Below, piece by piece: positions 16,382 through 59,790 of a stretch of 64,000 bases of DNA. Positions within the stretch are counted from its first letter, which is position 1. Each line of letters opens with the position of its first letter. The position numbers and the translations under genes are program-made. This stretch comes from Acutalibacteraceae bacterium (GTDB lineage Bacteria; Bacillota; Clostridia; Oscillospirales; Acutalibacteraceae): the NCBI GenBank assembly GCA_045659145.1, contig JAZOWI010000023.1, positions 3,669-67,668 of the forward strand, in the 5' to 3' direction. A model generated the notes under the pieces. It was not told the origin of the DNA, searched no databases, and was given only the letters and a program-made list of their open reading frames with translations.

Positions 16382-19300
16382 TTACGGATTGGTGCAGACG
16401 CCGGAGGCGTTGAAATAATAGGTCTGGCCTTGCCACTTCACAGAAGTGTTGGCAACCATATAGCCATTACCATCCATATAGTACCACTCGCCGCCGTACT
16501 TGACCCAATCATTGATGGTCATACGGCCGTTCTCATCCAGATAGCACCAGCCCACAGAATCTTTCTTCCAACTGTTGGTGACACAGTAACCGCTATTGTC
16601 CACATAGCACCAACCCTTGGAATCCTTGACCCACTTGTTGGTAGCCATACGGCCGCTGGCATCCAGATAGACCCAACCCTTAGAATCCTTCTTCCAGGTG
16701 TTGGTGACGCAGTAACCGTCAGCACCCACATAGCACCAGCCCACAGAATCCTTGACCCAGGCATTGGTGGCCATCTTACCGTTGGAGCCCAAATAGCACC
16801 AGCCCACAGAATCCTTCTTCCAGGTGTTGGAAACCATGTAGCCGTTGGCATCCAGGTAGTACCAACCGGTGCCATCATTGACCCAGTTGTTCTTCACCAT
16901 AGAACCGCTGCCATTCAGGTAGCACCAGCCCTTGGAATCCTTCTTCCAGGTGTTGGTGACCGCATAGCCGTCGGCACCCACATAGCACCAGCCAATAGAA
17001 TCCATGACCCACTTGTTGGTAACCATGGCACCGTTGGAGCCCAGGTAGCACCAGCCCTTGGAATCCTTGACCCACTTGCTGGCGACCATGTAGCCATTGG
17101 CATCGATGTAGTACCAAGAACCGTCCTTGATCCACTTCGCCTTGACCTGCTTGCCGTTCTCATAGTAAGTCCACTTGGAACCATCCTTGATCCAGCCATC
17201 TTCGACGGGAGGCTCAATGTAATCGTCCACAACTTCCTTACCGTCCTCGGTCTTGAACAGGCGCATATTGTCGATCAGAGCAGAACCGCCCAGATCGCAG
17301 ATACCAATACCCAGAGTGTCGTATACATCCGTGTTGAGGTTGAACACCAGAGTGAACCACTCATCGCCATAGTCTTCCTTACTGAAAGAAATCTCAATAA
17401 AGTTGATGTTGTGGCGAATCTTGCCATCCATCAGAGCCAGTTTACCCGCACCGCTCTCCAGGATCTTAACATCCACAGAGAAGGTGTAATCGGTATTGGG
17501 CTCCACATCCAACCAGTTGATGTAGTAGTAACCCACAGGGTTCTTGCTGGCGGTGTACTTCAGGGAGTTGCCATACTCATACTCGTTCTTGGCAATGTCA
17601 ATCATGCCCAGACCGAAGCCATTGCCATCCTTCCAGAAGTCCAGAGAACCAGTAGAGAAGGTGGGATCCACGATCAGGTTGTCCTTATCGTCGGCACCGT
17701 TGAACTCAACGCTGTCAAAGTCAACGCTGATGTTGCCGGCCATATTCTCGGAAACAAACTTCTTGCCATCGCCGTTCTTGAACAGAGCGATGTCATCCAC
17801 CCACATCTGAGAGTAGCTACCGGACAGAGCGATGCCAACCTTGGTGCTGGAACCGCTGTTGAACACGATGCTGCGCAGGTGCCACTCGTTATCCCACGCG
17901 GTGGGAACCAACTGACGCTTGTTGGTGCTGAACAAGAACTCGCTGAAGGTGAGATACTTGTTGTTGTCGGGGTTCACAATACCGATGGTCGCATCGTAGC
18001 GGTTATCATCAGAGATGAAAGCACCCTTCAACCAAGCAGAGAAGACGTAATCCGTCTCGGGCTCAACATCCACGTAGATCACGTGCTTCTGCGTATCCTC
18101 AACACCGGAGGTGTTGAAGTACAGACTCTTGGAGCCGGCGGGAGCAGTGGAATCGTCCACGATCTGCACGGTGTCGCACAGGAAATCATCCAGACCCTCA
18201 GCAGACTCGAAGCTACCGTTGGTCAGCAGATTCTTGTCAGCGGTCATGGGACGGTTGTTCACCGTGCCAAAGGACAGCATCGTCATGGGAATCACGGGCT
18301 CCTCAGGCTCAGAGATCTCAGGCTCAGTGCCCTTGACATACAGACCGATGTCATCCACCAGCATGATGCCGGGAGTGGTGCTGTCGGGACCGAATTTGAG
18401 CATCAGCTCTTCGATCTCGCCGGAGTTGAACTCAATACGCTGCTCAGTCCAGTTAGCATTAGCATGACCGAAGGTGTATTCACCGGAGATGATGGTACCG
18501 GTGGACTTATCCAGGTCGCACAGGTTCTTCCAGTCCATAGCCCACAGGCACCAGGGACCATCGCCTTCAACGCGCTTAGACCACCATACCAAAACATACA
18601 CAGTATCCTTCTGGAGTTTCACCTTCTGCATCACGCACTCGGACCACTGAGCGTCATTGGCCTCCAGCACCATGGAGTTGGTGCCGGTGTGAGCGTCGTT
18701 GGTCTCCAGAACACAGGTATCCTTCTTTACATCCCAGCTCTCGGTGCCCTTCTCGAAGCTGCCGTTCTTCACCAGGTTGTCACCATCCTCGTTGGGGATG
18801 TCGGACTTCTTCATAAAGACGACCTCATCCACCGCAAAGCTAGTGACACTAGCCTCCATCTGGAAGTACAGATCGATGACCTCATAGTCACCGGTATTGA
18901 ACTCCAGAACCTGATGTACCCAATCATTGTGGGTCTGATTAAACCAATACTGACCACTGGTCAGCGGAACATTATCATTACCGCTCTTAACATACAGGTT
19001 CCAGGCAGCCGTGCTGTTATCAAGACGCATATTCCAGAAGCTGATCACATAATCAGTGTTCTTCTCCACCTTAAAGCCGGTCTGCTTAGCGCCGCAGCCC
19101 CACTGGGCGGTGTGTTCCAGAATCAGAGCGTACTGGCCCTCTTTGACATACTCAGGATCATTGGTAATGGCAGAGGGAGCGGCAACGCTCCAAGCATCGC
19201 CGTTACCGGACTCAAAGCCGCCGTCCACGATCAAATTCTTGTCGGCAGGATCACCGGGCTCGTCGCCGGCAGCGGTGTCAACAATGACGAAATCGTCAAC

Positions 19301-20734
19301 ATACGCATCCTCGGCAATCTTGTTGCCGCCGCCGCAGAAGTTCACAAAGATGCTCTCAGCGGAAGCCACAAAAGTGTACTCAATCTTAGTCCACTCGCCG
19401 GCCTTGTTCTTGTCGTACCAGCCGCCGCAGCCCTCGATGCTGTTCTGATCACTGGGTTTCAGCTTCACCTGCACATTAACACCGTTGTTGTTAACCTTCA
19501 GCATAAAGGACAACTTATACTCGTTACCAACCGTCAGGCCGGTGATGGTCTGGTCCAGCATACCGCCCCAGCTACCATCACCAATCAGGTTGGCGCCGTA
19601 CTCACCGTTGTAGGAAGCCTCATCGGAGATCACGGTGTTCTGCCAGGCCTCCCAACCGGTGATATCGCCGGTCTCGAAGTCGCCGTTGACAAAACCAAAG
19701 GCAGGCTCCTCGGGCTCTTCGCCGCCAACCTCAACCACCTTGAAGTCATCAATGTAATAGTTAGCATTACAGTTGATAAACATCATGGACAGGAAACCGT
19801 CCTTCGAAGGAGTCACCTCATGAGAATACTCCTTCCAACTATCGCTCAGACGGGGCCAAGTGGTCTCCAGCAAGAGCTCCAGTTTGGAACCGTGATTCGC
19901 ATTACCATAGTTGGTCATGCTGATAGCGATAGCCGAACCACTCGCTGTACCGGGCAGATACTTTGCCTGGTAGGACACGATATAGGTCTTACCAGCCTGT
20001 ACGGGCACCGTGGGAGACTCAGCCGTGTTTTTATAGTCCTCGTAGGCAGTACCCTGCACAACAAAGGCATAATTGCCGTTGGCTGCATCCTCATCCGTGA
20101 TGCCGGTGCCGCCGTCGCCCGACACCTTCCAACCATCCGCATTGCCATCCTCAAAGGTGTCCACAAAGGGACCGGCGGGAACTTCAGGCTCAGATATGTC
20201 AGACTTCTTCATGAAGACGACCTCGTCCACTGCGAAGGATGCGGGTTTAGCCTCTTTCTGGAAGAACAGGTCGATGACCTCATAGTTGCCGGAGTTGAAC
20301 TCCAGAACCTGATGCACCCAATCGGTGTGGGTCTGGTTAAACCACTGCTGACCGCTGGTCAGCGTCATGTTGGTATTGCCGCTCTTGATATACAGGTTCC
20401 AAGCGCCGTCGCCGGAGATGCGCTTATTCCAGAAGCCCACCACATAATCGGTGTTGGGCTCGACCGCAAAGCCGGTCTGCTTAGCGCCGCAACCCCACTC
20501 AGCGGTGTGGTCCAGAATCAGAGCATACTGACCTTCCTTGACATAGTCAGCATTGTCGGTGATGGCAGAGGGAGCCTCAACGCTCCAAGCCTCGCCGTTG
20601 CCGGACTCGAAGCCGCCGTCGACGATCATATTTTTGTCGTCCGCAGAAGCAACCAAAGTGCCCAAAGGCAGAACCGTCAGCATCATCGCCACGGCCGCCA
20701 GGAGGGCTAATACTTTACGAATATTCTTTTTCAT
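16382..20734 (-). CDS. 1450-aa secreted protein: signal peptide, about 7 CBM4/9-like modules (including the conserved tandem pair), C-terminal cell-wall-binding (CW_binding_1-type) repeats
   Basis: Signal peptide MKKNIRKVLALLAAVAMMLTVLPLGTLVASA. Repeated (N/D)G(G/S)FE.G motifs. The C-terminal ~275 aa consist of ~21-aa repeats W(V/K)KDS.GWCY(L/V)...G.M.TN. AGGAGG RBS. Confidence 0.85.
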   Translation of the reverse strand: MKKNIRKVLALLAAVAMMLTVLPLGTLVASADDKNMIVDGGFESGNGEAWSVEAPSAITDNADYVKEGQYALILDHTAEWGCGAKQTGFAVEPNTDYVVGFWNKRISGDGAWNLYIKSGNTNMTLTSGQQWFNQTHTDWVHQVLEFNSGNYEVIDLFFQKEAKPASFAVDEVVFMKKSDISEPEVPAGPFVDTFEDGNADGWKVSGDGGTGITDEDAANGNYAFVVQGTAYEDYKNTAESPTVPVQAGKTYIVSYQAKYLPGTASGSAIAISMTNYGNANHGSKLELLLETTWPRLSDSWKEYSHEVTPSKDGFLSMMFINCNANYYIDDFKVVEVGGEEPEEPAFGFVNGDFETGDITGWEAWQNTVISDEASYNGEYGANLIGDGSWGGMLDQTITGLTVGNEYKLSFMLKVNNNGVNVQVKLKPSDQNSIEGCGGWYDKNKAGEWTKIEYTFVASAESIFVNFCGGGNKIAEDAYVDDFVIVDTAAGDEPGDPADKNLIVDGGFESGNGDAWSVAAPSAITNDPEYVKEGQYALILEHTAQWGCGAKQTGFKVEKNTDYVISFWNMRLDNSTAAWNLYVKSGNDNVPLTSGQYWFNQTHNDWVHQVLEFNTGDYEVIDLYFQMEASVTSFAVDEVVFMKKSDIPNEDGDNLVKNGSFEKGTESWDVKKDTCVLETNDAHTGTNSMVLEANDAQWSECVMQKVKLQKDTVYVLVWWSKRVEGDGPWCLWAMDWKNLCDLDKSTGTIISGEYTFGHANANWTEQRIEFNSGEIEELMLKFGPDSTTPGIMLVDDIGLYVKGTEPEISEPEEPVIPMTMLSFGTVNNRPMTADKNLLTNGSFESAEGLDDFLCDTVQIVDDSTAPAGSKSLYFNTSGVEDTQKHVIYVDVEPETDYVFSAWLKGAFISDDNRYDATIGIVNPDNNKYLTFSEFLFSTNKRQLVPTAWDNEWHLRSIVFNSGSSTKVGIALSGSYSQMWVDDIALFKNGDGKKFVSENMAGNISVDFDSVEFNGADDKDNLIVDPTFSTGSLDFWKDGNGFGLGMIDIAKNEYEYGNSLKYTASKNPVGYYYINWLDVEPNTDYTFSVDVKILESGAGKLALMDGKIRHNINFIEISFSKEDYGDEWFTLVFNLNTDVYDTLGIGICDLGGSALIDNMRLFKTEDGKEVVDDYIEPPVEDGWIKDGSKWTYYENGKQVKAKWIKDGSWYYIDANGYMVASKWVKDSKGWCYLGSNGAMVTNKWVMDSIGWCYVGADGYAVTNTWKKDSKGWCYLNGSGSMVKNNWVNDGTGWYYLDANGYMVSNTWKKDSVGWCYLGSNGKMATNAWVKDSVGWCYVGADGYCVTNTWKKDSKGWVYLDASGRMATNKWVKDSKGWCYVDNSGYCVTNSWKKDSVGWCYLDENGRMTINDWVKYGGEWYYMDGNGYMVANTSVKWQGQTYYFNASGVCTNP

Positions 20735-20749
20735 AAATGATTCCCCTCC

Positions 20750-22750
20750 TTATCTCACTTCGTACAGACCGATGTCATCAACGTAGAAGTCAGAATCCTT
20801 GATAACACGGAAGTCAATACCGAGCTTATCAGTCTCACCGGTACGAACGGTAATCACATCCTCGTGCCACTCGCCGTCCTGCTTAGCATTCAGATACTTA
20901 GCCGCAGGCTCAGCATCATAGATGGAGCCGTCACCGGTACCCTTGCCGTTAGCATCCAGAGTACGGATGAAGCAGTAGGCAGAAGGACATACGCCGATGT
21001 TCTTGTACTTGTAGGAGATCTTGTAGTTGGTATTGGGCTTAACGGTGATGCCGGGCTGGTTGAAGCCGAACCACTCGCTGCCGTTGTACCAATAACGGAT
21101 CACATACTCGCCATCGGGAGCATCGTCGATCTTCAAGACCTCACGACGATACTTGGAGTTGTCAGGATTCTCCGCATCCTGCTCACCCCAGTCTTCCCAA
21201 CCGGTCATATCGCCGGTCTCGAAGCTGCCGTTGGTCACCAGGTTCACGGGAGGCCCAAGGATCTCCATCTCGTTGTTAGGCTCAGACTCAGCAACGTTGC
21301 CGTCGGAGTCACGGACGATGATCTTATACATTACGGTGCCGCCATCGGTCCAGTTGGCAATGAACTCATCGTTGTAATTGCCCTTACCGTTGGTAGCATA
21401 TTCCATGGGATCTACGTTGTCCAGAACCTTCTCCCAAGTCTTACCGCTGTCCATGGAACGGAGCAGATCCATCTCAGTAGCCTGACGGGAAGGAATCCAA
21501 GTAACCGCACCGGAACCGGTGTTAGCAAACAAGATCGCCTTATCCAGAATGATCTCCTCGCCACGATGCAGAGCGCGATACTCGTCGATATAATAACGCA
21601 GAGTGAAAGCACCGGCACGGAAATCGCTGGTGGACTTAGCATCGGAAGCCAGCAGGCTATAATTGGTACCATAGGTGTTAGGCTGCCAGCACCACATCAT
21701 CCAACCGGTATAACCGGCAGCGATCAGGTTGTCATGGAACTGGATCATCTTGATGGTCCAGACCTCGTCCTCGACAGCGCCGTCGCCCAGACCCCACTCG
21801 GTCATAATAACAGGGTTGGAGGTCTTCAAAGACTCTACGCTGGGAACATTACAGGTAGAAGAATAGTTGTTAATACCCATGAAATCAAAGCCCTTATCCA
21901 GGTTGCGATAAATGGACATATCCTTCATGTTGGCGCAGTTGGTGCGAGCCACATCCGGCAGCACCTCAGCAACAACGTTGGTAACCGCATTCATGAAGTA
22001 CAGCATATCATCCTGATTAACGCCATACAGAACGCGACCGCCTTCAAAGTTGTTACCAATAGCGGAATCGTTCATCTCGTTCTCCAGCTCAACGCCGGTA
22101 GCAACCATCACAACAACGTCGGGATACTCAGCCAGAACCTCACAAACAGGCTTGGCAAATTTCTCGGCATAGTTATCCGCAACCTCAGGACGGCAGTACG
22201 CCTGAGCCACCATATCCCACAGCAGCTTACCATCCTTGAACAAATCGTTGGCTGCGGAGGTGTGGAAACAGATGGACCACAGAACGGGCATTTCCACTTC
22301 GCGGCAGATGTCCAGAAGCTTACGGATATTCTCCAGATAGTCCTCCTTAACACCCAACACGTCGCCGTTGTCATCATAGATGACACCCTCGCCGAAGGGA
22401 GAACCCTCATAACCCAGGACGTTGAAGCCCAGAGCCTTCAGGTTGTAGATCTCGCGGTAGATATTGGCTGCGCCGTACTGGTCAAAACCAGCCGCCGCAA
22501 AGCTGTTGCCGATAATCTTGACGCCGAGATCGTTACCGGTCAAACCGTGACCGAGGTTCTCGTGTTTGAACCAAGGGTACCAGATACCCTCAATGTAACC
22601 GTCGCGATCGATGATCTCTTCCACAGTGGTCACATCGTCACGCCACGGAAGGGTCGTGCCACCGGAAACCATCATGGTGCCAAAGACGCTCAACAGCATC
22701 GCAACAGCACACAGGACCGGCAACAGAACCTTCATGTTGGTTCTACGCAT
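20750..22750 (-). CDS. Secreted putative glycoside hydrolase, clan GH-A-like TIM barrel of unassigned family (paralogue P1), plus Fn3-like/Asp-box module and 1 CBM-like module
   Basis: Signal peptide. Conserved N-terminal EEIIDRDGYIEGIWYPWFKH. Candidate acid/base in VELENEMND and nucleophile in VIMTEWGLGD (the NE...E pattern of clan GH-A). Asp-box SMDSGKTW. C-terminal NGSFETGDMTGW module. Confidence 0.65.
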   Translation of the reverse strand: MRRTNMKVLLPVLCAVAMLLSVFGTMMVSGGTTLPWRDDVTTVEEIIDRDGYIEGIWYPWFKHENLGHGLTGNDLGVKIIGNSFAAAGFDQYGAANIYREIYNLKALGFNVLGYEGSPFGEGVIYDDNGDVLGVKEDYLENIRKLLDICREVEMPVLWSICFHTSAANDLFKDGKLLWDMVAQAYCRPEVADNYAEKFAKPVCEVLAEYPDVVVMVATGVELENEMNDSAIGNNFEGGRVLYGVNQDDMLYFMNAVTNVVAEVLPDVARTNCANMKDMSIYRNLDKGFDFMGINNYSSTCNVPSVESLKTSNPVIMTEWGLGDGAVEDEVWTIKMIQFHDNLIAAGYTGWMMWCWQPNTYGTNYSLLASDAKSTSDFRAGAFTLRYYIDEYRALHRGEEIILDKAILFANTGSGAVTWIPSRQATEMDLLRSMDSGKTWEKVLDNVDPMEYATNGKGNYNDEFIANWTDGGTVMYKIIVRDSDGNVAESEPNNEMEILGPPVNLVTNGSFETGDMTGWEDWGEQDAENPDNSKYRREVLKIDDAPDGEYVIRYWYNGSEWFGFNQPGITVKPNTNYKISYKYKNIGVCPSAYCFIRTLDANGKGTGDGSIYDAEPAAKYLNAKQDGEWHEDVITVRTGETDKLGIDFRVIKDSDFYVDDIGLYEVR

Positions 22751-28901: not shown

Positions 28902-30611
28902 TCAATTCCAGTCCGAACGACCATCGCTGTCAACAAACACCTCTTGATAACAACTTTTGATAATATCACCGTAAACACAGATGTCTTTTCCTTTATGTCG
29001 GAAAACATAATAGGGCCGCACGTAGATATTTGACTCCGTATGGGCAAACGGAATGTTTATAATGCGTACCGCATATTCTGCTTTTCCTTTGGCCACCGAA
29101 ATCCCCTTTTCGGCAACAGCATTTACCATTCTGCTACCGTCAACTCGGTCGATCACCATATGCTCGGGAGAGGCCTTATCTGCACTGTTACAGATTAATG
29201 CACCCATAGAAACAAGCGGATACATATTACCGTCACTCAGCGCATCTACCGTGGCGTTGATATAATCCAGCGTGTAGGACTCAGCGATGGACAAGCCCTC
29301 CACAGGCAATTCCATACGGAACGCCAGCTTGTATTGACGCTGAGTTTCGGGCAAATGACTCTGTTCTGCAGAATCCGAAATGCTGACGCCGGTATGGATA
29401 GGTTTCAAAGTAGGGATGATTTCCACTTCGGGTTCGGTGGAAATACCGTCTCCGGACTTAAACAAGCGGAAATCGTCCAACAGCACCTCGCCGCCCTTGT
29501 CCTGAATGACAAAGCCGACCTGCTTGAACACCTTGGAATCAAACTTAATACTGGTTATTTGCCAATCCGTTTTCGAATTGAGAGATATGGTCCGAAACGC
29601 CTTTGGCAGTTCAATGTTGTCATCCACCAATTTTATAGAGCCGTTACCGGTTTTGGTTACTTTGTACTTGAAGGTGAGGGTATAGGTGGTATTAGGTTCA
29701 ACCTTCAACCATTTAAAATAATGCAGACCAATGGGATTCACCGAGCTGTATTTCATTACACGCCCCTGATCGCCACCCACCTTGTCGAAGGACATAAAAC
29801 CATTGTTCCAACCGCTGCTGGTCTTGGTCCAAAACTCGGTTGACCGGTCGCCGATCATATTGGCATCGGGAATCAGGTTGTTCTCATCAGCGCAATACTT
29901 ATTGTCGCCGGAATTTGCGGCCGTAAGCGAAGTGGTTAACCGCTCACCCTTGTAGGTCTTTGATTTAGTAGAGAGAAAACTATTGGTGCGATGCAGTGCC
30001 ATATCATCGAAATACATCTCGGAAGAATAACCGTAGATGCCGATGGTAACAGAGGAAGACGAAGCCTTAAACTGGACACTGCGCAGATGCCATTTGTTAT
30101 CGGTGGCGGTGGAGCGGATCTGCTCCGTATCCCACGACACATGACCGAGATAGCTGTCTGTCATTTTTGCGAAAGCATCCTTGCCCGCATCGGGGTCCAT
30201 CACACCAATAGAGGCCTTGGCTTTGTTTGCAGCGCTCAAATACGGTGTCTTTACCCAAACCGAGAAAATGTAAGTCTGGTTTTTGGATAGACCCGATACC
30301 GTGAACTTACGCCAAGAGGGAGTAGCGGACGTATTTTTGTAGCAAAGCACTTTGCTCCCCTCAGGGGCGGTAGGATCACTCGTGACATAAAGGAGGCCAT
30401 CCTTTAAAAAAGTGTCGGTATTCCATTGACCATCACTCGTGGATTCAAAGCCACCGTTTTTAATGGAGTTGTTGCTTGAAGAACTGGGGCGGTTGGTTTC
30501 CACGCCAAAGTCGCTCAGAGAAAGAGCGCCAGCCTCCACCGAAAAGGTCATCAACAACACAAGCGCCGCACAAAAGGAAAGGGCTTTTTTCACATAGTTC
30601 ATTCGTTTCAT
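28902..30611 (-). CDS. Secreted protein: signal peptide, conserved tandem CBM-like pair, unassigned C-terminal domain
   Basis: Signal peptide MKRMNYVKKALSFCAALVLLMTFSVEAGA. Modules NGGFESTSDGQWNTD...MYFDDMALH and YCADENNLIPD...VLLDDFRLFK. C-terminal AEKGISVAKGKAEYAVRIINIP...IYVRPYYVF...VYGDII. Confidence 0.8.
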   Translation of the reverse strand: MKRMNYVKKALSFCAALVLLMTFSVEAGALSLSDFGVETNRPSSSSNNSIKNGGFESTSDGQWNTDTFLKDGLLYVTSDPTAPEGSKVLCYKNTSATPSWRKFTVSGLSKNQTYIFSVWVKTPYLSAANKAKASIGVMDPDAGKDAFAKMTDSYLGHVSWDTEQIRSTATDNKWHLRSVQFKASSSSVTIGIYGYSSEMYFDDMALHRTNSFLSTKSKTYKGERLTTSLTAANSGDNKYCADENNLIPDANMIGDRSTEFWTKTSSGWNNGFMSFDKVGGDQGRVMKYSSVNPIGLHYFKWLKVEPNTTYTLTFKYKVTKTGNGSIKLVDDNIELPKAFRTISLNSKTDWQITSIKFDSKVFKQVGFVIQDKGGEVLLDDFRLFKSGDGISTEPEVEIIPTLKPIHTGVSISDSAEQSHLPETQRQYKLAFRMELPVEGLSIAESYTLDYINATVDALSDGNMYPLVSMGALICNSADKASPEHMVIDRVDGSRMVNAVAEKGISVAKGKAEYAVRIINIPFAHTESNIYVRPYYVFRHKGKDICVYGDIIKSCYQEVFVDSDGRSDWN

Positions 30612-30626
30612 ACGCTCCCCTCCCCC

Positions 30627-32558
30627 TTAGCTTTCTACCTGATACAGACAGAAGTCGTCAACGGCAAACTGACCGGGATTGGCATCGTCGTTTGCCTGAA
30701 AGCGGAAATCGATGGTGGTATAATTTCCGGAATTAAAGGTAGCCTCGCAATAGACCCAATCCGTGTTCGTATGGCTAAAGAAAATACAACCGGCATTAAT
30801 ATTCGTATTGCCGTTCTTGGTAAACAGCGCATATCGACCGGAACCGGAAATGCGCTTTACCCAGAAAGAAACGGTATAACTGGTATTCTTCTTTACAGAG
30901 ATGCTCCTGTTGGCACACTCCGTCCAGACACCGCCGCTGGCTTTGAGCCGCAGAGACTTGGATCCGTTGTGAGCGTAAGCAGACGTAACCTCACCGTAGT
31001 TGGATTGAATGTTCCAGCCGGTGTTGCCACTCTCAAAGCCGCCATTGGTGGCCATATTGGTGGGCGGTGTCATATGGTTGCTGTACGAGGTGTGTCCATT
31101 CACCGTCACACGATACTGCACCGACGATCCCCCCACGCCGGTGTCCTGATAAGAATACCGATATCCACCCGTAGAGGCGTCTGCGACTGCTCCGCTGTTC
31201 TGGGTCACGGTAGTCCAAGCGCCGCCGTCTACGGAGCGCTCCAATTTATAAGTGGTGACACCTTTAGGCTGAATCCAATACACAGGACTGACGCCATCGT
31301 AATACAACATCGACGGCTTGCCGGTCACATAGGTGCCCGGCCGTTTAGAAGCACGATATTCCTCGATGTAATAGTATTGTTCATAAGTAGCCGAACGGAA
31401 ATCGTAGACCGTAGTGGCACCGTTCTTCAACAGATGATGACCGCCGCCATCGCGACCCGTAGGTTCCCAGGCCCACTGAATCCAACCGGCGTAATTATTG
31501 GACATAAACTTCTGTCGGAAGGTCTTCCATTTGCTGGCGAGGGAGGTGTCGTTGTAGTTGCTGCCATGATCCACGCCCCACTCGGTGGCCAGCATCGGAG
31601 CGGTAGCATAATATTGAGTCAGTTCGATGACGTTGGGGGTGTCCGAATACTGGTTGCGGCCTACCATATCGAAATTGCAGTCCGCATACATAGCGAAATT
31701 AGAGGTGTTGGTGGCAATGGTCACCGGGGTTTCAGGCATCATCTCTTTGATGGTATCGGTTACCGATTTAACAAAATGCACCGCATCCTCTTGGGTAACG
31801 CCGTAGGTTTCGCGGTCGCCCGTGGACTGATTACCCAACTGAGAATCGTTAATCTCGTTCTCGATCTCAACAGTGGAGCACATCATCGCCACCACGTCGG
31901 GGTACTCATTCAGCACCTCGCACACGGGCTTAACGAACTTCTCACAGTAGTTGGCAGTAATTTCGGGATTAGAATACATCTGGCACACAAAATACCAGAT
32001 ATCCAAATTACTGTATAGTACCGCCGCCGAGGTGTGGAAACACATAGCCCACAGCACCGGCATCTCCAACTCGCGGCACACATCCAGCAGGCGACGCATA
32101 TTGGTCAGATAAACGGGATCAACGCCCAACACGTCGCCGGTGTCCGGATCGTGAAGGATGCCCTCTCCCCAAGGAGAGCCTTCCAAACCAAGGATGTTGT
32201 ACCCCAAGGCTTTCAGATTGAATATCTCCCGCTTGATGTTGGAGATGCCATATTCGTCGATACCGATCTTATTGAAATCCTGCCAATAATCGGTTTGGCT
32301 TCCGTCTGTGTTGTAGAAACCGTCCAGCCGCTCGTTGTCAGGATTGGCCGCCAGACCGCTACCCAAATAGGTGTGGGTAAACCAAGGGTACCAGATACCC
32401 TCCAGATACGCATCCCGCTCGATGATGTCAAAGGCGGTAATATGCTCGTAATTCCGAGATGCTTCGCTGCCTGTGGCCACCATTGCGCCACAGCTGCTGC
32501 ACAGCAAGGCGACGGCGCACAGAATCGGTAAAAGCGCCTTTCTTCCGATGTTGCGCAT
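30627..32558 (-). CDS. Secreted putative glycoside hydrolase, clan GH-A-like (paralogue P2), plus Fn3-like/Asp-box module and 1 CBM-like module
   Basis: DIIERDAYLEGIWYPWFTH, VEIENEINDS, LATEWGVDHG, degenerate Asp-box SVDGGAWT, and a C-terminal NGGFESGNTGW module. Confidence 0.65.
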   Translation of the reverse strand: MRNIGRKALLPILCAVALLCSSCGAMVATGSEASRNYEHITAFDIIERDAYLEGIWYPWFTHTYLGSGLAANPDNERLDGFYNTDGSQTDYWQDFNKIGIDEYGISNIKREIFNLKALGYNILGLEGSPWGEGILHDPDTGDVLGVDPVYLTNMRRLLDVCRELEMPVLWAMCFHTSAAVLYSNLDIWYFVCQMYSNPEITANYCEKFVKPVCEVLNEYPDVVAMMCSTVEIENEINDSQLGNQSTGDRETYGVTQEDAVHFVKSVTDTIKEMMPETPVTIATNTSNFAMYADCNFDMVGRNQYSDTPNVIELTQYYATAPMLATEWGVDHGSNYNDTSLASKWKTFRQKFMSNNYAGWIQWAWEPTGRDGGGHHLLKNGATTVYDFRSATYEQYYYIEEYRASKRPGTYVTGKPSMLYYDGVSPVYWIQPKGVTTYKLERSVDGGAWTTVTQNSGAVADASTGGYRYSYQDTGVGGSSVQYRVTVNGHTSYSNHMTPPTNMATNGGFESGNTGWNIQSNYGEVTSAYAHNGSKSLRLKASGGVWTECANRSISVKKNTSYTVSFWVKRISGSGRYALFTKNGNTNINAGCIFFSHTNTDWVYCEATFNSGNYTTIDFRFQANDDANPGQFAVDDFCLYQVES

Positions 32559-32738: not shown

Positions 32739-34925
32739 TCAGCTCCAATCCAACTGACCGTCGTTGACATTGGGCGCTTCCTTATAGCAGCGAGATACAA
32801 TGTCACCATAGACAACGACCTCTTCACCCTCATACTCGAACACATAGTAAGGACGAGCATAAATTGTGGTCTGAATATTTGGATCAGGGATGTTAACGAT
32901 GCGCACCGCATATTCCGCTATGCCGTTCGCAACGGAAATACCCTTTTCCGCCACGATATTAATAGTGCTGCCTTTCGGTGTTGCATTGCCGATCACCATA
33001 TGATCCGTGGAGGCACCATTGGGGTTGTTGCACATAATGGCACCCATCGCCACGAGCTTGTATTTTACACCGGTACCCAGAGCATCTACCATAGCGGTGC
33101 TGTCATAGCCAATGAAGCGATGATCCTCGGAGATGGTCAAGCCGGTTGCCGGCAATTCTACACGGAACGCCAAGGCATTACCCACATCCGGCGCCTGATT
33201 CTCAGGATCGGAGGTACTGGTGCCGGTGTTGGCAGGCTTCAAGGCAGCGAACACCTCTTCGACAGGCTCGGTGGAGGTACCATTGGCATTACCATTCTCA
33301 TCATAGGTCTTGAACAAACGAATGTCGTCAATCATCGCTGTGCCACCCGCATCCAAAACCACAAAACCGATCTGGTTGTGAACGCCGGAGTTGAAGGTGA
33401 CCGCATATTCTTCCCACTTATCCATTCGACTTGTGAAGGGAATCCTGCCGAACTCCTCAGGTAACTCAATGTCGTTATCCACCAACTTGATCATACCGTT
33501 ACCCGTGGTAAGAACCTTGTAGTCGAAAGACATCGTGTAATCGGTGTTGGGCTCCACGGGGATCCACTTGAAGAAGTTATAATTCACCTTGGCCCCGGCA
33601 GTGTATTTCATTACACGGCCGTGGTCGTCACCGGCATCCACAATGGACATAAAGCCGTTGTTCCAGCCGCCGGAATTGGTGCTCCAAAAGTTCTTGGAAA
33701 CGCCGCTGTTCATATTGCAATCGGGAATCAGGTTATCCTCGGCCTTACAATACTTATTGGTCACCGAGGTGCTGCCGGAAATATTCTCCGAACGACGAGC
33801 ACCCACGTACTCCATACCGTCGGTCAGCTTATGTACCGACAGGTCGTCGATCCACATCTGGGACTTCTTACCGTATACCGCCACGGTCACCGTTTCCGTA
33901 TTGGAGGTGCGGAAGGTCATGGCGCGCAGATGCCAACGGTTATCCATAGCCGTGGGACGCAGGGCCTTTTTGGGACCGGACTGCTTAAACTTATATGCTG
34001 CAAGCGAAGAATAGATAAACTGGTTCGTATCCGGGTCAATGATACCGAGGCTGGTCAGACCCGTATTGTTGCCACTCAAGTAGGGAGCCTTCACCCACGC
34101 GGACAGTACGTACTCGGTATTGGCCTCCACGTTGATGGTGAAGGTGTGCCAGCTCTCCATAGTGGAGGCATTCTGGTAATACAGGCAACTGTTGCCGGAA
34201 TAAGCACCCTCGGAAACCACCGACAGGTTGTTCTTGATGAAGGTGTTGGTGTTCCACTGGGCACCGGAGGTGGACTCGAAGCCCCCCTGGGTCACCTTGT
34301 TGACCGAATCACTCTTGGGACGGTTCATTTCAGCACCGAAACCGGTCATCGTAGGAGTGGGGTCCGAGTGAGTCGACTCATCGCCCACCGTAGTGGCAGT
34401 CAACGAAACACCATCCAGATAATGAGTCCGGTTGCCCGAGCTGGGGGCGTAAAAACGAATGCAAATGTACGTGTTACTGCCCACGCTGATACCTGATTTA
34501 GTGGTCTCCTTAAATGTCGTACCATTATTTACGTTCGTCTTCTGCACCAATGTTGTACCGAAAGTCGTGTCGTTGGTGCCGGCTACCACCTCATACTGAT
34601 AAGTTCCTGAACCATTTAGAGAGATTGCATAACGACACCAAAAAGATAAGGTGTACACCGCATTCTTGTTGACCGGAATAACTTGAGAAGCAACTACTTT
34701 GCCGTAGGTGGCACTATTGATTGGCATTTTCAAGGAATAAGAATCATATTTCTTGTAATCTGTAGAAGCCTCGGCACCGGAGATAGTCCAAGCAGCGATA
34801 CCTTCCTCAAAGCCACCATTCGCCACAGTACCCACAGCCGCCGCCGAAACCGCGAAGGAAGGGATCAGCGTGCAGAGCATCGCCACGGACAGGAGGACTG
34901 CCCATACTTTATTCATCTTTTTCAT
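32739..34925 (-). CDS. Secreted protein: signal peptide, extra N-terminal CBM-like module, conserved tandem CBM-like pair, unassigned C-terminal domain
   Basis: Signal peptide MKKMNKVWAVLLSVAMLCTLIPSFAVSAAA. NGGFEEGIAAW, QGGFESTSGAQWNTN...MWIDDLSVHK, YCKAEDNLIPD...AMIDDIRLFK. C-terminal AEKGISVANGIAEYAVRIVNIP...IYARPYYVF...VYGDIV. Confidence 0.8.
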   Translation of the reverse strand: MKKMNKVWAVLLSVAMLCTLIPSFAVSAAAVGTVANGGFEEGIAAWTISGAEASTDYKKYDSYSLKMPINSATYGKVVASQVIPVNKNAVYTLSFWCRYAISLNGSGTYQYEVVAGTNDTTFGTTLVQKTNVNNGTTFKETTKSGISVGSNTYICIRFYAPSSGNRTHYLDGVSLTATTVGDESTHSDPTPTMTGFGAEMNRPKSDSVNKVTQGGFESTSGAQWNTNTFIKNNLSVVSEGAYSGNSCLYYQNASTMESWHTFTINVEANTEYVLSAWVKAPYLSGNNTGLTSLGIIDPDTNQFIYSSLAAYKFKQSGPKKALRPTAMDNRWHLRAMTFRTSNTETVTVAVYGKKSQMWIDDLSVHKLTDGMEYVGARRSENISGSTSVTNKYCKAEDNLIPDCNMNSGVSKNFWSTNSGGWNNGFMSIVDAGDDHGRVMKYTAGAKVNYNFFKWIPVEPNTDYTMSFDYKVLTTGNGMIKLVDNDIELPEEFGRIPFTSRMDKWEEYAVTFNSGVHNQIGFVVLDAGGTAMIDDIRLFKTYDENGNANGTSTEPVEEVFAALKPANTGTSTSDPENQAPDVGNALAFRVELPATGLTISEDHRFIGYDSTAMVDALGTGVKYKLVAMGAIMCNNPNGASTDHMVIGNATPKGSTINIVAEKGISVANGIAEYAVRIVNIPDPNIQTTIYARPYYVFEYEGEEVVVYGDIVSRCYKEAPNVNDGQLDWS

Positions 34926-34944
34926 ACGTCAGATCCTCCCTTCA

Positions 34945-36477
34945 TTAGTATTTCCACACGTTGGAATAAGACGTCTTGCCGTTAACAGTGACACGATACT
35001 GCACCGTGCCGGAGGTCACAAAATTGGGATCTTGATAGCTGTAACGATAACTGCCGGTGGTGGTGTCCACAGTAGCACCGGAGGTCGTCACCGTAGTCCA
35101 AGTATTGCCACCGTCCACCGAACGCTCCACCTTGTAGGTGCTTACGTTTTTGGGCTGAATCCAATACAGCAGACCATTGGCATTTTTACCATCGTGATAG
35201 AACATAGAGGGATTACCGGTGGTATGATAGGCGGATTTCTTGTCCGCACGAATCTCCTCAATGTGATAGTACTGCTCGTAGCAAGCCTGACGGAAATCGT
35301 ACACTGTCTGAGCATTCTGCTTGGTGAACTGGTTGCCGGAGGGAGTCTGCGTTCTTCTCAGCGTAGGCTGCCAGCACCACTGGAACCAACCGGTATAATT
35401 CTGAGTCATAAGATTGATGCGCCAGTTTTTGAAAGCGGTAATAGCCTCACTTTCGCTGAGCGCAACTCCATCACCCAGGCCCCACTCGGTGGCCAGTACG
35501 GGAGCGGTAGCATAGTAATTGGAGAAATTGTACACATTAGCGGAAGAAGAATACTGGTTACGACCCACCATATCAAAGTTACAACCGGCGTACATAGCGT
35601 AGTTGTTGGTGTTGGTAGCAATGGTTACGTAGGTGTTGGGCATCTTCTCCTTCACCGTCTGGGTCAGACGGGTAACGAAGTGCACACAGTCATCCTGCGT
35701 AATGCCATAAGCCTCGCGGTCGCCGTGATTCATATGATTACCCAGTTCGGAGTCGTTGGTCTCGTTCTCCAACTCAACGGTGGAACAAACCATCGCCACC
35801 ACGTCAGGGTACTCATTGAGCACATTGCACACGGGCTTGACGAACTTCTCGCAATAGTTCTCCACAATCTCGGGATTGCAGTAGAACTGGGTGGCGAAAT
35901 ACCACGCGTCCATACCGGTGTACTCAGGCATCGCCGATGCATGGAAGCATATCGTCCACATTACGGGCATATCCACCTCGCGGCAGATATCCAAAAAGCG
36001 GCGAATATTATTGAGATACTCAGGGCGCAGACCAATCACGTCACCGTTGAGCTCGTTGCGCAAGCAACCCTCACCCCAGCAAGAGCCCTCGAAGCCCAGC
36101 ATATTGTAGCCGAGAGCCTTCAGGTTATAGATCTCCTGCTTGATCTTATCCGCGCCGTATTCGTCAATACCAACCTTGTTGAAATCCTGATAGTAATCCG
36201 TGCCACCCTCAGGATGGTCCAGTCTCTCCAGATCGGGATTCTGAGCCAAGCCACTGCCGAGATAATCGTGAGTGAACCAAGGGTACCATACGCCCTCCAA
36301 ATAAGCATCCCGCTCCAGAATCTCCGGCACAGTGACACGACCATCGTTATTCGCGTCATACTTCTTGGCGCTAACGTCCTCGGTGCTACCGGTGAAGGAC
36401 AGCACGCCCAGCATGCTGACCGAAAGGGCCACCACGCAGAGCAAGGGCAACAGGATCTTATTGCCGATTTTACGCAT
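34945..36477 (-). CDS. Secreted putative glycoside hydrolase, clan GH-A-like (paralogue P3), plus Fn3-like/Asp-box module
   Basis: Start trimmed to MRKIGNKILLPLLCVVALS (ATG at 36477, GGAGAGGAAG RBS). EILERDAYLEGVWYPWFTH, VELENETNDS, LATEWGLGDG, Asp-box SVDGGNTW. Confidence 0.65.
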   Translation of the reverse strand: MRKIGNKILLPLLCVVALSVSMLGVLSFTGSTEDVSAKKYDANNDGRVTVPEILERDAYLEGVWYPWFTHDYLGSGLAQNPDLERLDHPEGGTDYYQDFNKVGIDEYGADKIKQEIYNLKALGYNMLGFEGSCWGEGCLRNELNGDVIGLRPEYLNNIRRFLDICREVDMPVMWTICFHASAMPEYTGMDAWYFATQFYCNPEIVENYCEKFVKPVCNVLNEYPDVVAMVCSTVELENETNDSELGNHMNHGDREAYGITQDDCVHFVTRLTQTVKEKMPNTYVTIATNTNNYAMYAGCNFDMVGRNQYSSSANVYNFSNYYATAPVLATEWGLGDGVALSESEAITAFKNWRINLMTQNYTGWFQWCWQPTLRRTQTPSGNQFTKQNAQTVYDFRQACYEQYYHIEEIRADKKSAYHTTGNPSMFYHDGKNANGLLYWIQPKNVSTYKVERSVDGGNTWTTVTTSGATVDTTTGSYRYSYQDPNFVTSGTVQYRVTVNGKTSYSNVWKY

Positions 36478-55615: not shown

Positions 55616-55652
55616 AAAAGGACCTCCGCCGAAAAGCGGAGGCCCCTTCTTG
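55616..55652. terminator. Bidirectional terminator between convergent genes
   Basis: CCTCCGC (55623-55629) / GCGGAGG (55636-55642) with flanking A- and T-rich runs. Confidence 0.6.
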
Positions 55653-55659: not shown

Positions 55660-58600
55660 TTATTCTACCCAAACGCCGGAAGCGTTAAAGGTGTATTTAG
55701 TGCCGCCGATGGTCAGGGTGGTACTATACACCATATAACCGTTGGCATCCAGATAATACCACTTGCCGCCATCCTGAACCCACGCACTCTTAGTCATAGA
55801 GCCGTTCTTATCCAGCCAGATCCAGCCGTAGCTGTCTTTCTTCCAGCAGTTGGTGACGGCATAGCCGTCCTCGCCCACATAGCACCAGCCCTTGCTGTCC
55901 TTGCACCAAGCATTGGTGAGCATCGCGCCGTTGGAGCCAAGATACACCCAACCCTTGGAATCCTTCTTCCATGCATTGGTCACCATATAGCCGTTCTTGT
56001 CCAAGAAGTACCACTTGCCGCCGTCCTTGACCCAAGCATTCTTGGTCATGGAACCGCTGGCATTCAGATAACACCAGCCGACACTGTCCTTCTTCCACGT
56101 ATTCGTCACAGCATAGCCATCGGCGCCCACATAGCACCAACCTACCGAGTCCTTGACCCACTTATTGGTGGCCATACGACCATCCTTGTCCAGATAACAC
56201 CAACCGACGGAATCCTTCACCCATTTATTGGTGACACAGTAGCCGTCACTGCCCACGTAGCACCAGCCGACCGAGTCCTTGATCCAAGCGTTGGTGGCCA
56301 TCTTACCGGAAGAGGTCAGATAGACCCAGCCCACGCTGTCTTTGCGCCATTGGCTGACCTGCATATAGCCGCCCTTGGCCAAATAGTACCATCCGCCGCC
56401 GTCGTGGAGCCACTGACTTTCCAACACATAGGCATCCTTATCCTGATAGATCCAGCCCTTGCCGTCGTGGGCCCAACCGTCGGACACGCAATAGCCGTCC
56501 TTGCCGATATACCGCCATTTGGCCCCATCGCGGCGCCACGCGTCGGTGACCTTCTCGCCCAAGGAATAGAAACACCATTTGCCGTCCTCCAAGGTCCAAC
56601 CTCTGAATCTGTCAACAAACTCATCATCGCCCTCGGTGGCATTCTCCTCTTCGAACAAACGAATGTTGTCAAAGAACGCTTCGCCGCCCTTGTCCAGCAC
56701 CGCAAAGCCGATACGCGTCATTCCTCGGGTATTGAATCCAAAGAATAGGGAGAACCATTCCCCGTCAAAATCATCAATAAACATCATATCGAAGAAGGAA
56801 ACGGGACCGCCCAGCTTATCTGCCAGCAATTTTACTTTGCCTAATCCGTCCTCCAATATCTTCATATCCATAGAGAAAATATAACGGGTATTGGGTTTAA
56901 CATCCAACCATTTGATGTAGTGAATACCATTGGAGGACTCACCGCCGGTATATTTGAGTGAGGTGCCGTATTCAAAGGGCTGCTCCTCCATACTCATAAA
57001 GCCCTGATTCCAACCACCGCCGGACTGCCAATAATCCGAGTCGGGGTCGTCCATACGGATATTCTCAGTTACAGAGTACTTGTCCTCACAATAATCATCC
57101 TCTACCATGTAGTAGTAAACGGCAGAGGCCATATTCTCACTGAGATAATGCTGTCCATCCGCTGTTTTATACAACGCCAGACCGTCCACCCACATCTGAC
57201 TGGACCGCCCCAGCAGACCGATGGTGATGCTGGTCTGACTGCCGCTGTTGAACTTCACACTGCGCAATGCCCAGCGATTATCCCAAGCCTTGGGACGAAT
57301 CTGCTGATAATCGCGGGAGGCACGTCCATCAATTTCCGGTTGCACCATAAACTTCTGCGTACGGGGATTGAGCACACCGATGCTGGCCGCAAAGCGGTTA
57401 TTCTCACTGATGTAGGGACCCTTCACCCATGTGGAGAATACATACTCGGTGTTGGGCTGTATGTCCACGGTAAAGGTGTACCATCGGTATTCGTCAACAT
57501 CGGAGGAATCGAAAAACAAAGAATATTCCCCCTCAGGGGCGGTGGCATCCTTCACCACCTGCACACCATCCCGCAAGAAAGCATCGGTATTCCATTGACC
57601 GCCATCGCTGATTTCGAAACTGCCGTTATCGATCAAATTCACCGCATCCTTCATGGGGCGGTCGTTCCATTCGCCGAATTGAAGGAGAGAAATATTGGGC
57701 GCACCGGAGACGACCGCTCCGGCCGCCGGCACCGTGGGACGCGTTACCGTCTTTACATTGATTTTCACATTATCTTGCACATAGGCAACCGCATCCATAG
57801 GGCTGTTGGAGACCGACTCGGCGGTGTTGCCTTCGGCATCCCGTACCACGATCTTATAAATAGCATTGTAGGCAGTGCCGTTATCCCTGTAAGAGCACTT
57901 ATTACCTTTTTTATAATCATTCTGATCTACGTTTTCCAACACCATTTTCCAGTTCTTTCCGCCGTCGGTGGAGCGCAACAGATCCATAGATACCGCCTGA
58001 CGAGAGGGGATCCACTCAATGGCATCCACACCATTGACGTAGAAGAACTCCGCCGCGTCCAACGGAGCGTCTACCGCCCAATAGGTATAGCGGGCATCCA
58101 AAATGTGCTCCCGCAGGCGGAAGGCATACTCGCGGAAGTCGGTGGTAGTCACCGCATTCTTCGCCAACAAATCGTGCGTGGCTCCCTTACTATTGGGCTG
58201 CCAGCACCACAAGAAACCACCGTGCCACCCCTTCTCCCGCATATTCTTGCGGAAATTCAGGTGGGCATTAAGATAATCCTGCTCCGTGAGGTTCGTGCCG
58301 TCACCTATGTTATACTCAGTCATCAGCATCGGTGCGGTAGTATAAAAATACTCCATAGGGTCACAGTTACCGTTGTTGTCATAGCGGTTGCGTCCCATCA
58401 CGTCCAGTTCCAGCTCGCTGTAAGTAGCCAGATCGTCAAAGTTGGCCGCCACCGTGCGGGCGATCCCGGGCAGTTCCTCCTTGACTACATCATTCATAGC
58501 GGTCACCAGACGCAGCATATCCTCCTTGGTTACACCGTAGGCCACGCCGTGAGAGGTGCCGGAGGTTTTGTTGCCGATGGCCGTGTCGTTCATCTCGTTC

Positions 58601-59268
58601 TCAATCTCATCGGTCAGGGCAATGAGCGCCACCACATCAGGGAACTCCGCCAGCACCTTACACAGAGGACGGACAAACCGCTCCACATAATGCTCGGTCA
58701 CGGTAGGATTGGAATACATCTGGGTCATCATCGTCCAGGCATCGAAGCCGTAATAATCGTCTGCCGAGGAGGAGTGGAACAAGATGTTCCACATCACAGG
58801 CATACCGATCTGACGGCACATCTCCAACAAACGGCGGACGTTAGCCAGATAATCTTCTTTAATACCCACCACGTCACCGTTGTCGTCAATAATCACGCCC
58901 TCGGCATAGGCAGAACCGGCATAGGCCAGCATATTGTAGCCCATCGCTTTCAGGTTATAGATCTCTTTGTAGATCTTATTGGCACCGTAGGCATCAATGC
59001 CGACGGAATCAAACCCGTACCAACGGTTATCGATCCAGGTCTGCGCGATTTCGTTGGCGGTGAGACCCGAACCCAGATAGTTGTGGGTGAACCAAGGGTA
59101 CCACACGCCCTCGATGAAGCCGTCCCGCTCCAAAATCTGCTGGTACAGCGTCTTCTCCGCGGTTACGGGAGTCGGCTCCTCTGCCGCTGCCGGCAGCAGT
59201 CCCGCCAATCCCGCCAACAGAGCCAATACGCTCAAAAAGGACAACCATTTGATATAGGATTTTCGCAT
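55660..59268 (-). CDS. 1202-aa secreted fusion: clan GH-A-like catalytic module (paralogue P4), Fn3-like/Asp-box, conserved tandem CBM-like pair, cell-wall-binding repeats
   Basis: Signal peptide. QILERDGFIEGVWYPWFTH, DEIENEMNDT, LMTEYNIGDG, Asp-box STDGGKNW, NGSFEISDGGQWNTD...MWVDGLALYK, YCEDKYSVTEN...AFFDNIRLFE. Then ~320 aa of W(V/K)KDS(V/K)GW(C/V)Y repeats. Confidence 0.8.
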   Translation of the reverse strand: MRKSYIKWLSFLSVLALLAGLAGLLPAAAEEPTPVTAEKTLYQQILERDGFIEGVWYPWFTHNYLGSGLTANEIAQTWIDNRWYGFDSVGIDAYGANKIYKEIYNLKAMGYNMLAYAGSAYAEGVIIDDNGDVVGIKEDYLANVRRLLEMCRQIGMPVMWNILFHSSSADDYYGFDAWTMMTQMYSNPTVTEHYVERFVRPLCKVLAEFPDVVALIALTDEIENEMNDTAIGNKTSGTSHGVAYGVTKEDMLRLVTAMNDVVKEELPGIARTVAANFDDLATYSELELDVMGRNRYDNNGNCDPMEYFYTTAPMLMTEYNIGDGTNLTEQDYLNAHLNFRKNMREKGWHGGFLWCWQPNSKGATHDLLAKNAVTTTDFREYAFRLREHILDARYTYWAVDAPLDAAEFFYVNGVDAIEWIPSRQAVSMDLLRSTDGGKNWKMVLENVDQNDYKKGNKCSYRDNGTAYNAIYKIVVRDAEGNTAESVSNSPMDAVAYVQDNVKINVKTVTRPTVPAAGAVVSGAPNISLLQFGEWNDRPMKDAVNLIDNGSFEISDGGQWNTDAFLRDGVQVVKDATAPEGEYSLFFDSSDVDEYRWYTFTVDIQPNTEYVFSTWVKGPYISENNRFAASIGVLNPRTQKFMVQPEIDGRASRDYQQIRPKAWDNRWALRSVKFNSGSQTSITIGLLGRSSQMWVDGLALYKTADGQHYLSENMASAVYYYMVEDDYCEDKYSVTENIRMDDPDSDYWQSGGGWNQGFMSMEEQPFEYGTSLKYTGGESSNGIHYIKWLDVKPNTRYIFSMDMKILEDGLGKVKLLADKLGGPVSFFDMMFIDDFDGEWFSLFFGFNTRGMTRIGFAVLDKGGEAFFDNIRLFEEENATEGDDEFVDRFRGWTLEDGKWCFYSLGEKVTDAWRRDGAKWRYIGKDGYCVSDGWAHDGKGWIYQDKDAYVLESQWLHDGGGWYYLAKGGYMQVSQWRKDSVGWVYLTSSGKMATNAWIKDSVGWCYVGSDGYCVTNKWVKDSVGWCYLDKDGRMATNKWVKDSVGWCYVGADGYAVTNTWKKDSVGWCYLNASGSMTKNAWVKDGGKWYFLDKNGYMVTNAWKKDSKGWVYLGSNGAMLTNAWCKDSKGWCYVGEDGYAVTNCWKKDSYGWIWLDKNGSMTKSAWVQDGGKWYYLDANGYMVYSTTLTIGGTKYTFNASGVWVE

Positions 59269-59294
59269 AAGATCACACTCCTTTTCACAAGAAG

Positions 59295-59324
59295 ATTATA
59301 TCGTAAAAGAGAGAGCGCCGTCAA
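59295..59324 (-). promoter_or_regulatory. Sigma-A type promoter for the 55660-59268 gene
   Basis: The minus strand reads TTGACG-18 nt-TATAAT (complement of 59319-59324 and 59295-59300). Confidence 0.55.
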
Positions 59325-59541: not shown

Positions 59542-59544
59542 TTT

Positions 59545-59761: not shown

Positions 59762-59790
59762 ATATGACAAAGTCGTCAGTCACGAACAAT

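Follow-up and report, generated by a model that had tools for sequence, protein, structure and literature searches.

A predicted clan GH-A-like glycanase and its dedicated beta-sandwich modules, encoded as one or two polypeptides in an Acutalibacteraceae genome

Glycosidases that are built either as a single chain or from two chains are known from family GH2 of the glycoside hydrolases (GH): LacZ is a single-chain enzyme and LacLM of lactic acid bacteria is a heterodimeric beta-galactosidase, the small subunit of which is the counterpart of a C-terminal beta-sandwich domain in LacZ and a required part of the complex. The Bacillus enzyme Cel5B (GH5_4) possesses an indispensable accessory module, the carbohydrate-binding module (CBM) CBM46, and in Cel5B as in multi-domain GH2 and GH35 enzymes beta-sandwiches are packed rigidly on a clan GH-A barrel and shape the substrate-binding site. 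Cellulosomal scaffoldins and the surface glycan-binding proteins of Bacteroidota are non-catalytic proteins, encoded near the enzyme, that provide targeting and cell attachment. Finally, the fusion elsewhere of otherwise separate proteins (the Rosetta-stone argument), reportedly put forward in 1999 by Marcotte and by Enright and their co-workers, is said to predict a functional or physical link. Here, the gene 55660-59268 of an Acutalibacteraceae bacterium is described, which lies in a stretch of 64,000 nucleotides of contig JAZOWI010000023.1 (the window; coordinates refer to it and, unless stated otherwise, to its minus strand). It is an open reading frame encoding 1202 aa, in which a GH-like catalytic module, an Fn3-like domain, two beta-sandwich modules termed A and B and a tail of wall-binding repeats are joined, and it is compared with its split paralogues, in which the catalytic module and the A/B pair are encoded by adjacent genes.

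As in LacLM and LacZ, one glycosidase unit occurs here as one chain or as the product of two adjacent genes. LacLM is a cytoplasmic enzyme with an experimentally established heterodimer, whereas the chains of the glycanase described here are secreted separately, their complex is proposed from sequences and models, and the two forms coexist as many paralogues in one genome. Modules of the Cel5B-CBM46 type are known only in cis, while A/B of the glycanase are also found in a separate chain, and no solved structure with the same global four-domain arrangement was found by Foldseek (query-normalised TM score ≤0.28). The likeness to scaffoldins extends to glycanase relatives that carry a dockerin in place of the wall-binding repeats (P0075, L055), as in cellulosomes; in contrast to these, no cohesin-dockerin pair joins the glycanase chains and the proposed contact surface is the interface of the fused chain. 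Different from the classic Rosetta stone, one and the same genome contains the fused and split forms as paralogues, and the fusion adds little beyond the operon evidence because the split genes are already adjacent. Nothing specific on fused and split glycosidase/CBM complexes was found in the literature; modular glycosidases are already known to undergo fusion or fission of adjacent genes.

Architecture and probable coupling of the catalytic module and the A/B pair

According to the explanation judged best overall, which is held with reasonable confidence, a working unit of TIM-barrel catalytic domain, Fn3-like domain and the dedicated beta-sandwich modules A and B would be built as one or as two chains, its parts would be coupled and the compact one-chain form would descend from a split ancestor. 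This grading combines those of three parts, i.e., a functional coupling of the split GH and A/B genes that is very probable, a complex in trans that is somewhat favoured and a descent of the fused gene from a split ancestor that is probable. The one-chain build would be GH-Fn3-A-B-anchor, as in 55660-59268. For the two-chain build, a secreted GH-Fn3(-X) would be followed by (X)n-A-B-anchor from touching cistrons, X being an ordinary CBM_4_9 module that occurs 1 to 10 times. The A/B end of the second chain would then dock non-covalently on GH-Fn3, which would add substrate-binding surface and would be the only tether of the enzyme where the partner carries wall-binding repeats.

The genus was sampled with 25 genomes, 17 of which have no copy; the other 8 hold 77 catalytic copies, namely 46 fused, 27 split and 4 without a detected A/B pair, so that the one-chain form is the commoner architecture in the genus (46 vs 27). 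In small genomes the family has multiplied strongly: the metagenome-assembled genome (MAG) that contains the window (1.46 Mb, 77.6% complete) encodes 12 copies, seven fused and five split, a relative of 1.8 Mb (G022) encodes 26 catalytic copies, and family copies lie on the G000 contigs C5, C13, C23, C35, C40, C46, C50 and C59. Throughout the 8 genomes, 73 of the 77 catalytic modules have an A/B pair either on their own chain or encoded by the adjoining gene. Of the four remaining enzymes, two run into a contig end, the partner of a third is divergent, and for the fourth (G022L034_6654) the fetched sequence contains no partner. A complete A/B pair without enzyme was not seen in these genomes, as the four A/B pairs that stand alone are each truncated at a contig end. 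Furthermore, A/B are absent from other CBM-rich proteins of the genome, in which X modules do occur; A/B are not promiscuous, unlike the X modules, and the promiscuous-domain caveat of the Rosetta-stone argument applies to X and not to A/B. The parts found fused in 46 and split in 27 copies are thus non-promiscuous ones. A preliminary description of the window had proposed that the split pairs function together and that the CBM proteins are not independent lectins; the linkage in 73 of 77 copies supports the former, and the absence of complete A/B pairs without enzyme in the 8 genomes agrees with the latter. The fusion is no singular event and the gene no rare Rosetta stone, with 46 fused and 27 split copies in the genus and at least three origins. 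Among the best 120 database matches to aa 1-900 all share the GH-Fn3-A-B core, while the C-terminal appendage varies between wall-binding repeats, PKD, Ig or dockerin. The split-type GH protein has its own homologues in more than 350 clusters, and in three opened metagenome loci the split arrangement and the synteny of the window are repeated.

The split pairs are built uniformly. The GH gene is followed on the same strand, after 4-21 nt, by the A/B gene, which has its own ribosome-binding site (RBS) and signal peptide. The gap measures exactly 15 nt in 15 of the 27 pairs, where one in-frame TAA and the RBS separate the two frames; two of these gaps are in the window (20735-20749 and 30612-30626), the 13 other such pairs in relatives. 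This recurring gap probably reflects an RBS-spacing constraint or shared ancestry. As revealed by scanning all copies with hidden Markov models built in this analysis, at least one X is located between Fn3 and A in all 27 split pairs (27/27), ten X being the highest total, and the X array either contains the gene boundary or borders on it. The X modules of the split pairs match CBM_4_9 strongly (200 bits over seven stretches). Of the fused copies, 41/46 are without X (referred to as compact fused, including 55660-59268) and 5/46 carry one or two. The GH chains of the split pairs stop exactly at the domain end, their wall-binding repeats are found only on the A/B chain and never on the GH chain, and A/B are conserved as strongly as the barrel, with many invariant polar and aromatic residues.

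The product of 55660-59268 starts with a signal peptide (~aa 1-29, 59182..59268; hydrophobic core and AAA/EE, read by eye from the sequence), followed by the clan GH-A-like (beta/alpha)8 catalytic module (aa 38-400, 58069..59157), as predicted with AlphaFold2 (AF2) and Foldseek. An Fn3-like beta-sandwich with an Asp-box (STDGGKNW; weak BNR match) follows (aa 401-500, 57769..58068) and is common to all copies. An ordered linker (57649..57768) ends in the motif L-x-x-F-G-x-x-x-N-R-P directly ahead of module A; in a junction alignment this motif is kept in fused and split forms, with L, F, R and P invariant or nearly so. Module A (aa 541-705, 57154..57648) is a CBM_4_9-like jelly roll with 38-48% identity to the split partners. 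The PF02018 profile gave 30.6 bits (cut-off 25.9), covering the N-terminal half only, if the A/B pair was scanned alone, and no match to module A if the full 1202-aa protein was scanned. For the beta-sandwich module B (aa 716-885, 56614..57123) no significant Pfam family was found, with weak MAM and DUF642 matches in the paralogue P0005. The tail (aa 886-1202, 55663..56613) consists of choline-binding/cell-wall-binding repeats, for which PF19085 (82.7 bits), PF19127 (60 bits) and PF01473 (37.3 bits) all score above the Pfam cut-off, and it probably anchors the product to the cell wall.

By blastp, aa 1-~500 of the fused protein show 37-40% identity to the three GH-like proteins of the window (E 1e-104 to 1e-143) and aa ~520-890 show 36-47% identity to the three CBM-pair proteins (E 1e-63 to 0), while aa 890-1199 match the repeat tail of 16382-20734. 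Pair 1 (16382..22750) is composed of the enzyme GH-Fn3-X (20750-22750, 666 aa) and, after an in-frame gap of 15 nt, the partner X5-A-B with wall-binding repeats (16382-20734, 1450 aa). Pair 2 (28902..32558) comprises the enzyme GH-Fn3-X (30627-32558, 643 aa) and, again after 15 nt in frame, the partner A-B with a 170-aa C-terminal domain (28902-30611, 569 aa). Pair 3 (32739..36477) encodes the enzyme GH-Fn3 (34945 to ~36477) and, after 19 nt, the partner X-A-B with a 170-aa C-terminal domain (32739-34925, 728 aa). The TTG start listed for 34945-36621 places 48 extra residues (36478-36621) before a normal signal peptide (MRKIGNKILLPLL...), and the true start of this enzyme is probably the ATG at 36477. 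All three pairs are real bicistrons: TAA, a GGAGG-type RBS and the next ATG follow one another within 15-19 nt, and every partner possesses a separate signal peptide.

Both the fused order (GH-like, Fn3/Asp-box, A, B, repeats) and the three adjacent split gene pairs had been described before, and they are borne out by blastp and domain scans and by the TAA, RBS and ATG within 15-19 nt, respectively. The statement that the same parts are found split and fused holds for GH, Fn3, A and B, but the split pairs add one to six X. Likewise, the proposed position on the cell surface stands for the pair whose partner carries repeats (16382-20734) but not for the pairs 30627/28902 and 34945/32739, in which Pfam recognised no anchor on either protein. 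The ~170-residue C-terminal domain of the partners of pairs 2 and 3 (28902-29420 and 32739-33260) remained without a Pfam match at E ≤1; it stands where other paralogues have their wall-binding repeats and may therefore serve for attachment as well.

The catalytic module and the predicted structure

Searches with aa 1-500 of four paralogues returned no Pfam family at E ≤0.01, and the catalytic module is without an NCBIfam match and without a match among PDB sequences at E ≤10. No profile match places the module in GH5 (PF00150) or in any other curated GH sequence family, and the family was placed by fold search alone. When 1.84 billion cluster representatives were scanned exhaustively with HMMER, only 105 relatives were obtained. 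In Foldseek the barrel of the AF2 model (aa 30-890) was assigned to clan GH-A (probability 1.0, TM score 0.45-0.63 on the target). The best single-domain matches are the GH5_10 endo-beta-1,4-mannanases of Mytilus edulis (2c0h), Aplysia (3vup), Eisenia (5y6t) and Cryptopygus (4oou), with TM scores of 0.57-0.63 at 12-16% identity, and further matches are to GH2, GH157, GH158 and GH1. With GH5_10 and clan GH-A the module shares the (beta/alpha)8 barrel, one invariant Glu each at the end of beta-4 and of beta-7, and the His/Tyr/Trp constellation. It differs from GH5_10 by the low identity, by D, V or S instead of Asn before the putative acid/base, by the Fn3 domain that always follows and by the A/B partner in the subfamily. 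The top Foldseek matches of the whole model (GH2 glucuronidases, GH101, Vip3 and Cry toxins) were rejected as homologues of the whole architecture because these are piecewise matches of barrel or jelly roll, with TM scores ≤0.25 and a root-mean-square deviation >20 Å.

Two glutamates are the candidate catalytic residues, E221 (58606-58608) after model strand 184-191 (end of beta-4) and E318 (58315-58317) in strand 285-291 (end of beta-7), acting as putative acid/base and putative nucleophile, respectively. Conservation of H165, E221, Y296, E318 and W354 extends to at least 75 of the 76 copies in the genus, whether fused or split. E221 and E318 are each E in 75/76 copies and both are invariant in a wider alignment of 44 rows, and across the wider family no barrel residue other than E221, Y296 and E318 is invariant. 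An N224-E225 pair is located three residues after E221, with E225 not being invariant. By its modelled fold, the family is an uncurated clan GH-A-like glycanase lineage and a predicted enzyme. The leading guess for its substrate is a glycan of the beta-mannan type, which is reasonable as the window also encodes a GH130, a CE2-type esterase fusion, GDSL esterases and a GH2; DUF5696 and ABC sugar uptake proteins are encoded there as well. The catalytic domain is uncurated and has ~100 representatives at 50% identity, yet the family makes up several percent of these small genomes and it is probably central to the feeding of these gut or rumen Clostridia.

The AF2 model of aa 30-890 (861 residues, from an alignment of 73 rows) shows four domains with a mean predicted local distance difference test (pLDDT) of 92.5 and a predicted TM score (pTM) of 0.92, and the Fn3-A linker has a pLDDT of 87-96. 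Given this pTM and the confident linker, the fused chain is predicted to pack as one rigid body and not as beads on a string, which makes docking in trans plausible for the split chains. Split pair 2 (P0004 and P0005) was modelled as a tethered construct, in which the in-frame TAA was read as Gly and served as linker only. Here, the pTM is 0.83, the barrel and A/B are of high confidence, and low confidence is restricted to the extra X module and the signal peptide.

Possible complex formation and probable direction of change

Domain-wise trees, as proposed in the preliminary description, recover the same major clades for GH, A+B, A and B. In each tree the nearest relative of 55660-59268 is the same fused gene of G022 (79% identity in GH, 67% in A+B). 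Distances in the GH and A+B trees are correlated for all pairs (Mantel r 0.78) and for the 27 split pairs only (0.72), and the values are 0.83 for GH vs A, 0.62 for GH vs B and 0.60 for A vs B, with 0 permutations as high as the observed values. As the GH, A and B trees are congruent, the fused modules are related to those of the split partners, and the possibility raised earlier that they are unrelated falls away. Four split pairs form a clade (G012L018 type; loci L018, L011, L020 and L025, with a GH of ~640-655 aa and the partner X-A-B-X) that is placed differently in the two trees, its GH with the 20750-type enzymes and its A/B with the 30627/34945-type partners (support 100). This conflict suggests at least one partner exchange, perhaps by recombination.

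A functional coupling of the split GH and A/B genes is very probable; that their products form a non-covalent complex in trans, for which the predicted structure is the strongest argument, is favoured by a small margin. The competing explanation is co-expression without a complex, in which the split A/B proteins would be independent surface or secreted glycan-binding proteins, comparable to those encoded beside enzymes in Bacteroidota loci, catching the polysaccharide that the free GH cuts, and A/B of the fused form would be ordinary appended CBMs. This is considered unlikely, and there are observations that fit it: module A scores as CBM_4_9, the partners bear long ordinary CBM_4_9 arrays in addition to their own signal peptide and anchor, and there is one probable partner exchange between the trees. 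Moreover, in the distant relatives L053 and L054 a GH-Fn3-X enzyme stands alone, without an A/B partner and with a GH3 gene after it, which shows that the A/B partnership is not family-wide and that the barrel can evidently work without it. Co-expression alone is harder to reconcile with the fixed packing indicated by the pTM of the fused model and its high-confidence linker, with A/B never being found away from the enzyme whereas X modules are, with A/B being as conserved as the barrel including their many invariant polar and aromatic residues, and with the split GH subunits having no anchor of their own. Several further points speak against the proposed enzyme and its complex. Co-phylogeny is expected for any adjacent genes that are duplicated as a unit, even without contact, and the clade of the L018 type departs from it. 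The tethered model is not independent since its alignment consists of fused homologues, so that the arrangement is largely copied. Residue 220, directly before E221, is never the Asn usual in clan GH-A: the 76 copies have D (50), S (13), V (12) or C (1). Finally, repeats of the choline-binding type can bind glycans instead of the cell wall, so that the ligand of the tail may be wall teichoic acid or a glycan. It was also considered that the split genes are artefacts or decaying copies resulting from frameshift, nonsense mutation or MAG assembly error, for which the 15 of 27 gaps of 15 nt, in frame and with a single stop codon between the frames, could be cited. This is effectively refuted by the RBS, ATG and signal peptide of every partner, by the same three pair size classes in eight genomes and in independent metagenome assemblies, by the intact catalytic residues and by GH chains that end exactly at the domain boundary. 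Read-through across the in-frame TAA as a biological process was rejected as well because each partner comes with an RBS and a signal peptide and 12/27 gaps are not 15 nt long. A more far-reaching joint claim is put forward tentatively and with clearly less weight than the complex itself: the enzymes would constitute a new GH family or subfamily, the split members of which would be extracellular heterodimers with the A/B subunit docking via the single-chain interface, completing the cleft and acting as sole tether to wall or cellulosome, and chain number would switch by gain or deletion of the CBM array at the gene boundary. The coexistence of one- and two-chain paralogues amounts to a natural experiment on the role of accessory "CBM" modules, which may be integral to the enzyme or act as tethered lectins. 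For annotation, A/B proteins are better named glycanase subunits or partners than generic carbohydrate-binding proteins.

Concerning the direction of change, three separate clades of compact fused genes, all well supported, are present in 100% of the bootstrap trees of the outgroup-rooted GH tree. A single compact-fused clade is found in 0% of the trees and is rejected by the approximately unbiased (AU) test (delta log-likelihood 96, p = 8e-6). The ~35-residue linkers of the three clades are mutually unrelated and clade-specific. The compact fused form thus seems to have arisen independently at least three times in the genus. Rooted parsimony within the clade of 70 copies requires 3 changes with a split backbone compared with 5 with a compact-fused backbone, which makes it fairly probable that 55660-59268 is derived from a split ancestor; the question of ancestral or derived, raised in the preliminary description, is thus answered by the trees in favour of derived with moderate confidence. 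The X array would have been lost in an in-frame deletion, together with the stop codon and with the RBS and signal peptide of the partner. The reverse course, for which the odds are rated rather low, would start from a fused ancestor that was split repeatedly as X arrays with a stop and a new start grew between Fn3 and A. It would agree with the earliest ingroup branch, which is fused with X (GH-Fn3-X-A-B, C50 type), with the outgroup representative P0146 of the same fused architecture and with the equal parsimony cost of split and fused-with-X at the ingroup root. It is countered by the two additional changes that the compact-fused backbone costs inside the clade of 70 copies, by the unrelated linkers of the compact clades, by the split pairs of the distant branch L055 and by the ~48 of 75 full-length representatives of the wider family that are short GH-Fn3-single-CBM proteins. 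Besides the fused first branch, a derived origin of 55660-59268 has against it that the outgroup branches are long, as flagged by the tree program, and that the parsimony margin amounts to two steps. The set of paralogues permits the study of fusion and splitting in genes of multi-modular carbohydrate-active enzymes.

Distant relatives and surroundings of the fused gene

The distant branch L055, found in a metagenome, is also split, with a GH of 711 aa followed by X5-A-B-dockerin. A dockerin takes the anchor position in other taxa (P0075; 9154-13920 of L055), and the enzyme unit hence seems to be mounted on the wall or on a cellulosome-like scaffold. Genes for cohesin and dockerin adjoin one split pair in other taxa (9154-13920 of L055; 1747-5307 of L051). 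The loci of L053 and L054 contain DUF5696, AraC, a solute-binding protein, a permease, GH2 and GDSL as in the window, and L053 also NHL-Yip1. The enzyme family and the sugar-uptake cassette seem to travel together. No confirmed locus was obtained for the distant short forms P0145 (genome contigs) and P0150 (metagenome contigs). An order-wide genome search with a GH-Fn3-X profile resulted mostly in generic CBM_4_9 matches. About 12 genomes of other families in the order encode proteins of 390-430 aa matching the barrel only (E 1e-11 to 1e-18; e.g., G408:C3:74528-75355 and G179:C11:313033-313950), which may represent a related barrel-only enzyme family.

As to the surroundings of 55660-59268, the plus-strand open reading frame 57148-59676, which lies over the fused gene and the tRNA genes upstream of it, is probably spurious. 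The same probably applies to 59764-60684 (plus strand), which overlaps the MatE gene 59845-61278 in antisense and has no Pfam match. The fused gene (55660..59268) is apparently monocistronic. A terminator-like hairpin with a 15-bp stem (55616..55649) is located directly 3' of its stop codon, and a promoter-like site precedes it (59295..59324, TTGACG-18-TATAAT, 11/12, a consensus match only). Just upstream, tRNA-Trp and tRNA-Met are encoded at 59545-59761 on the same strand.

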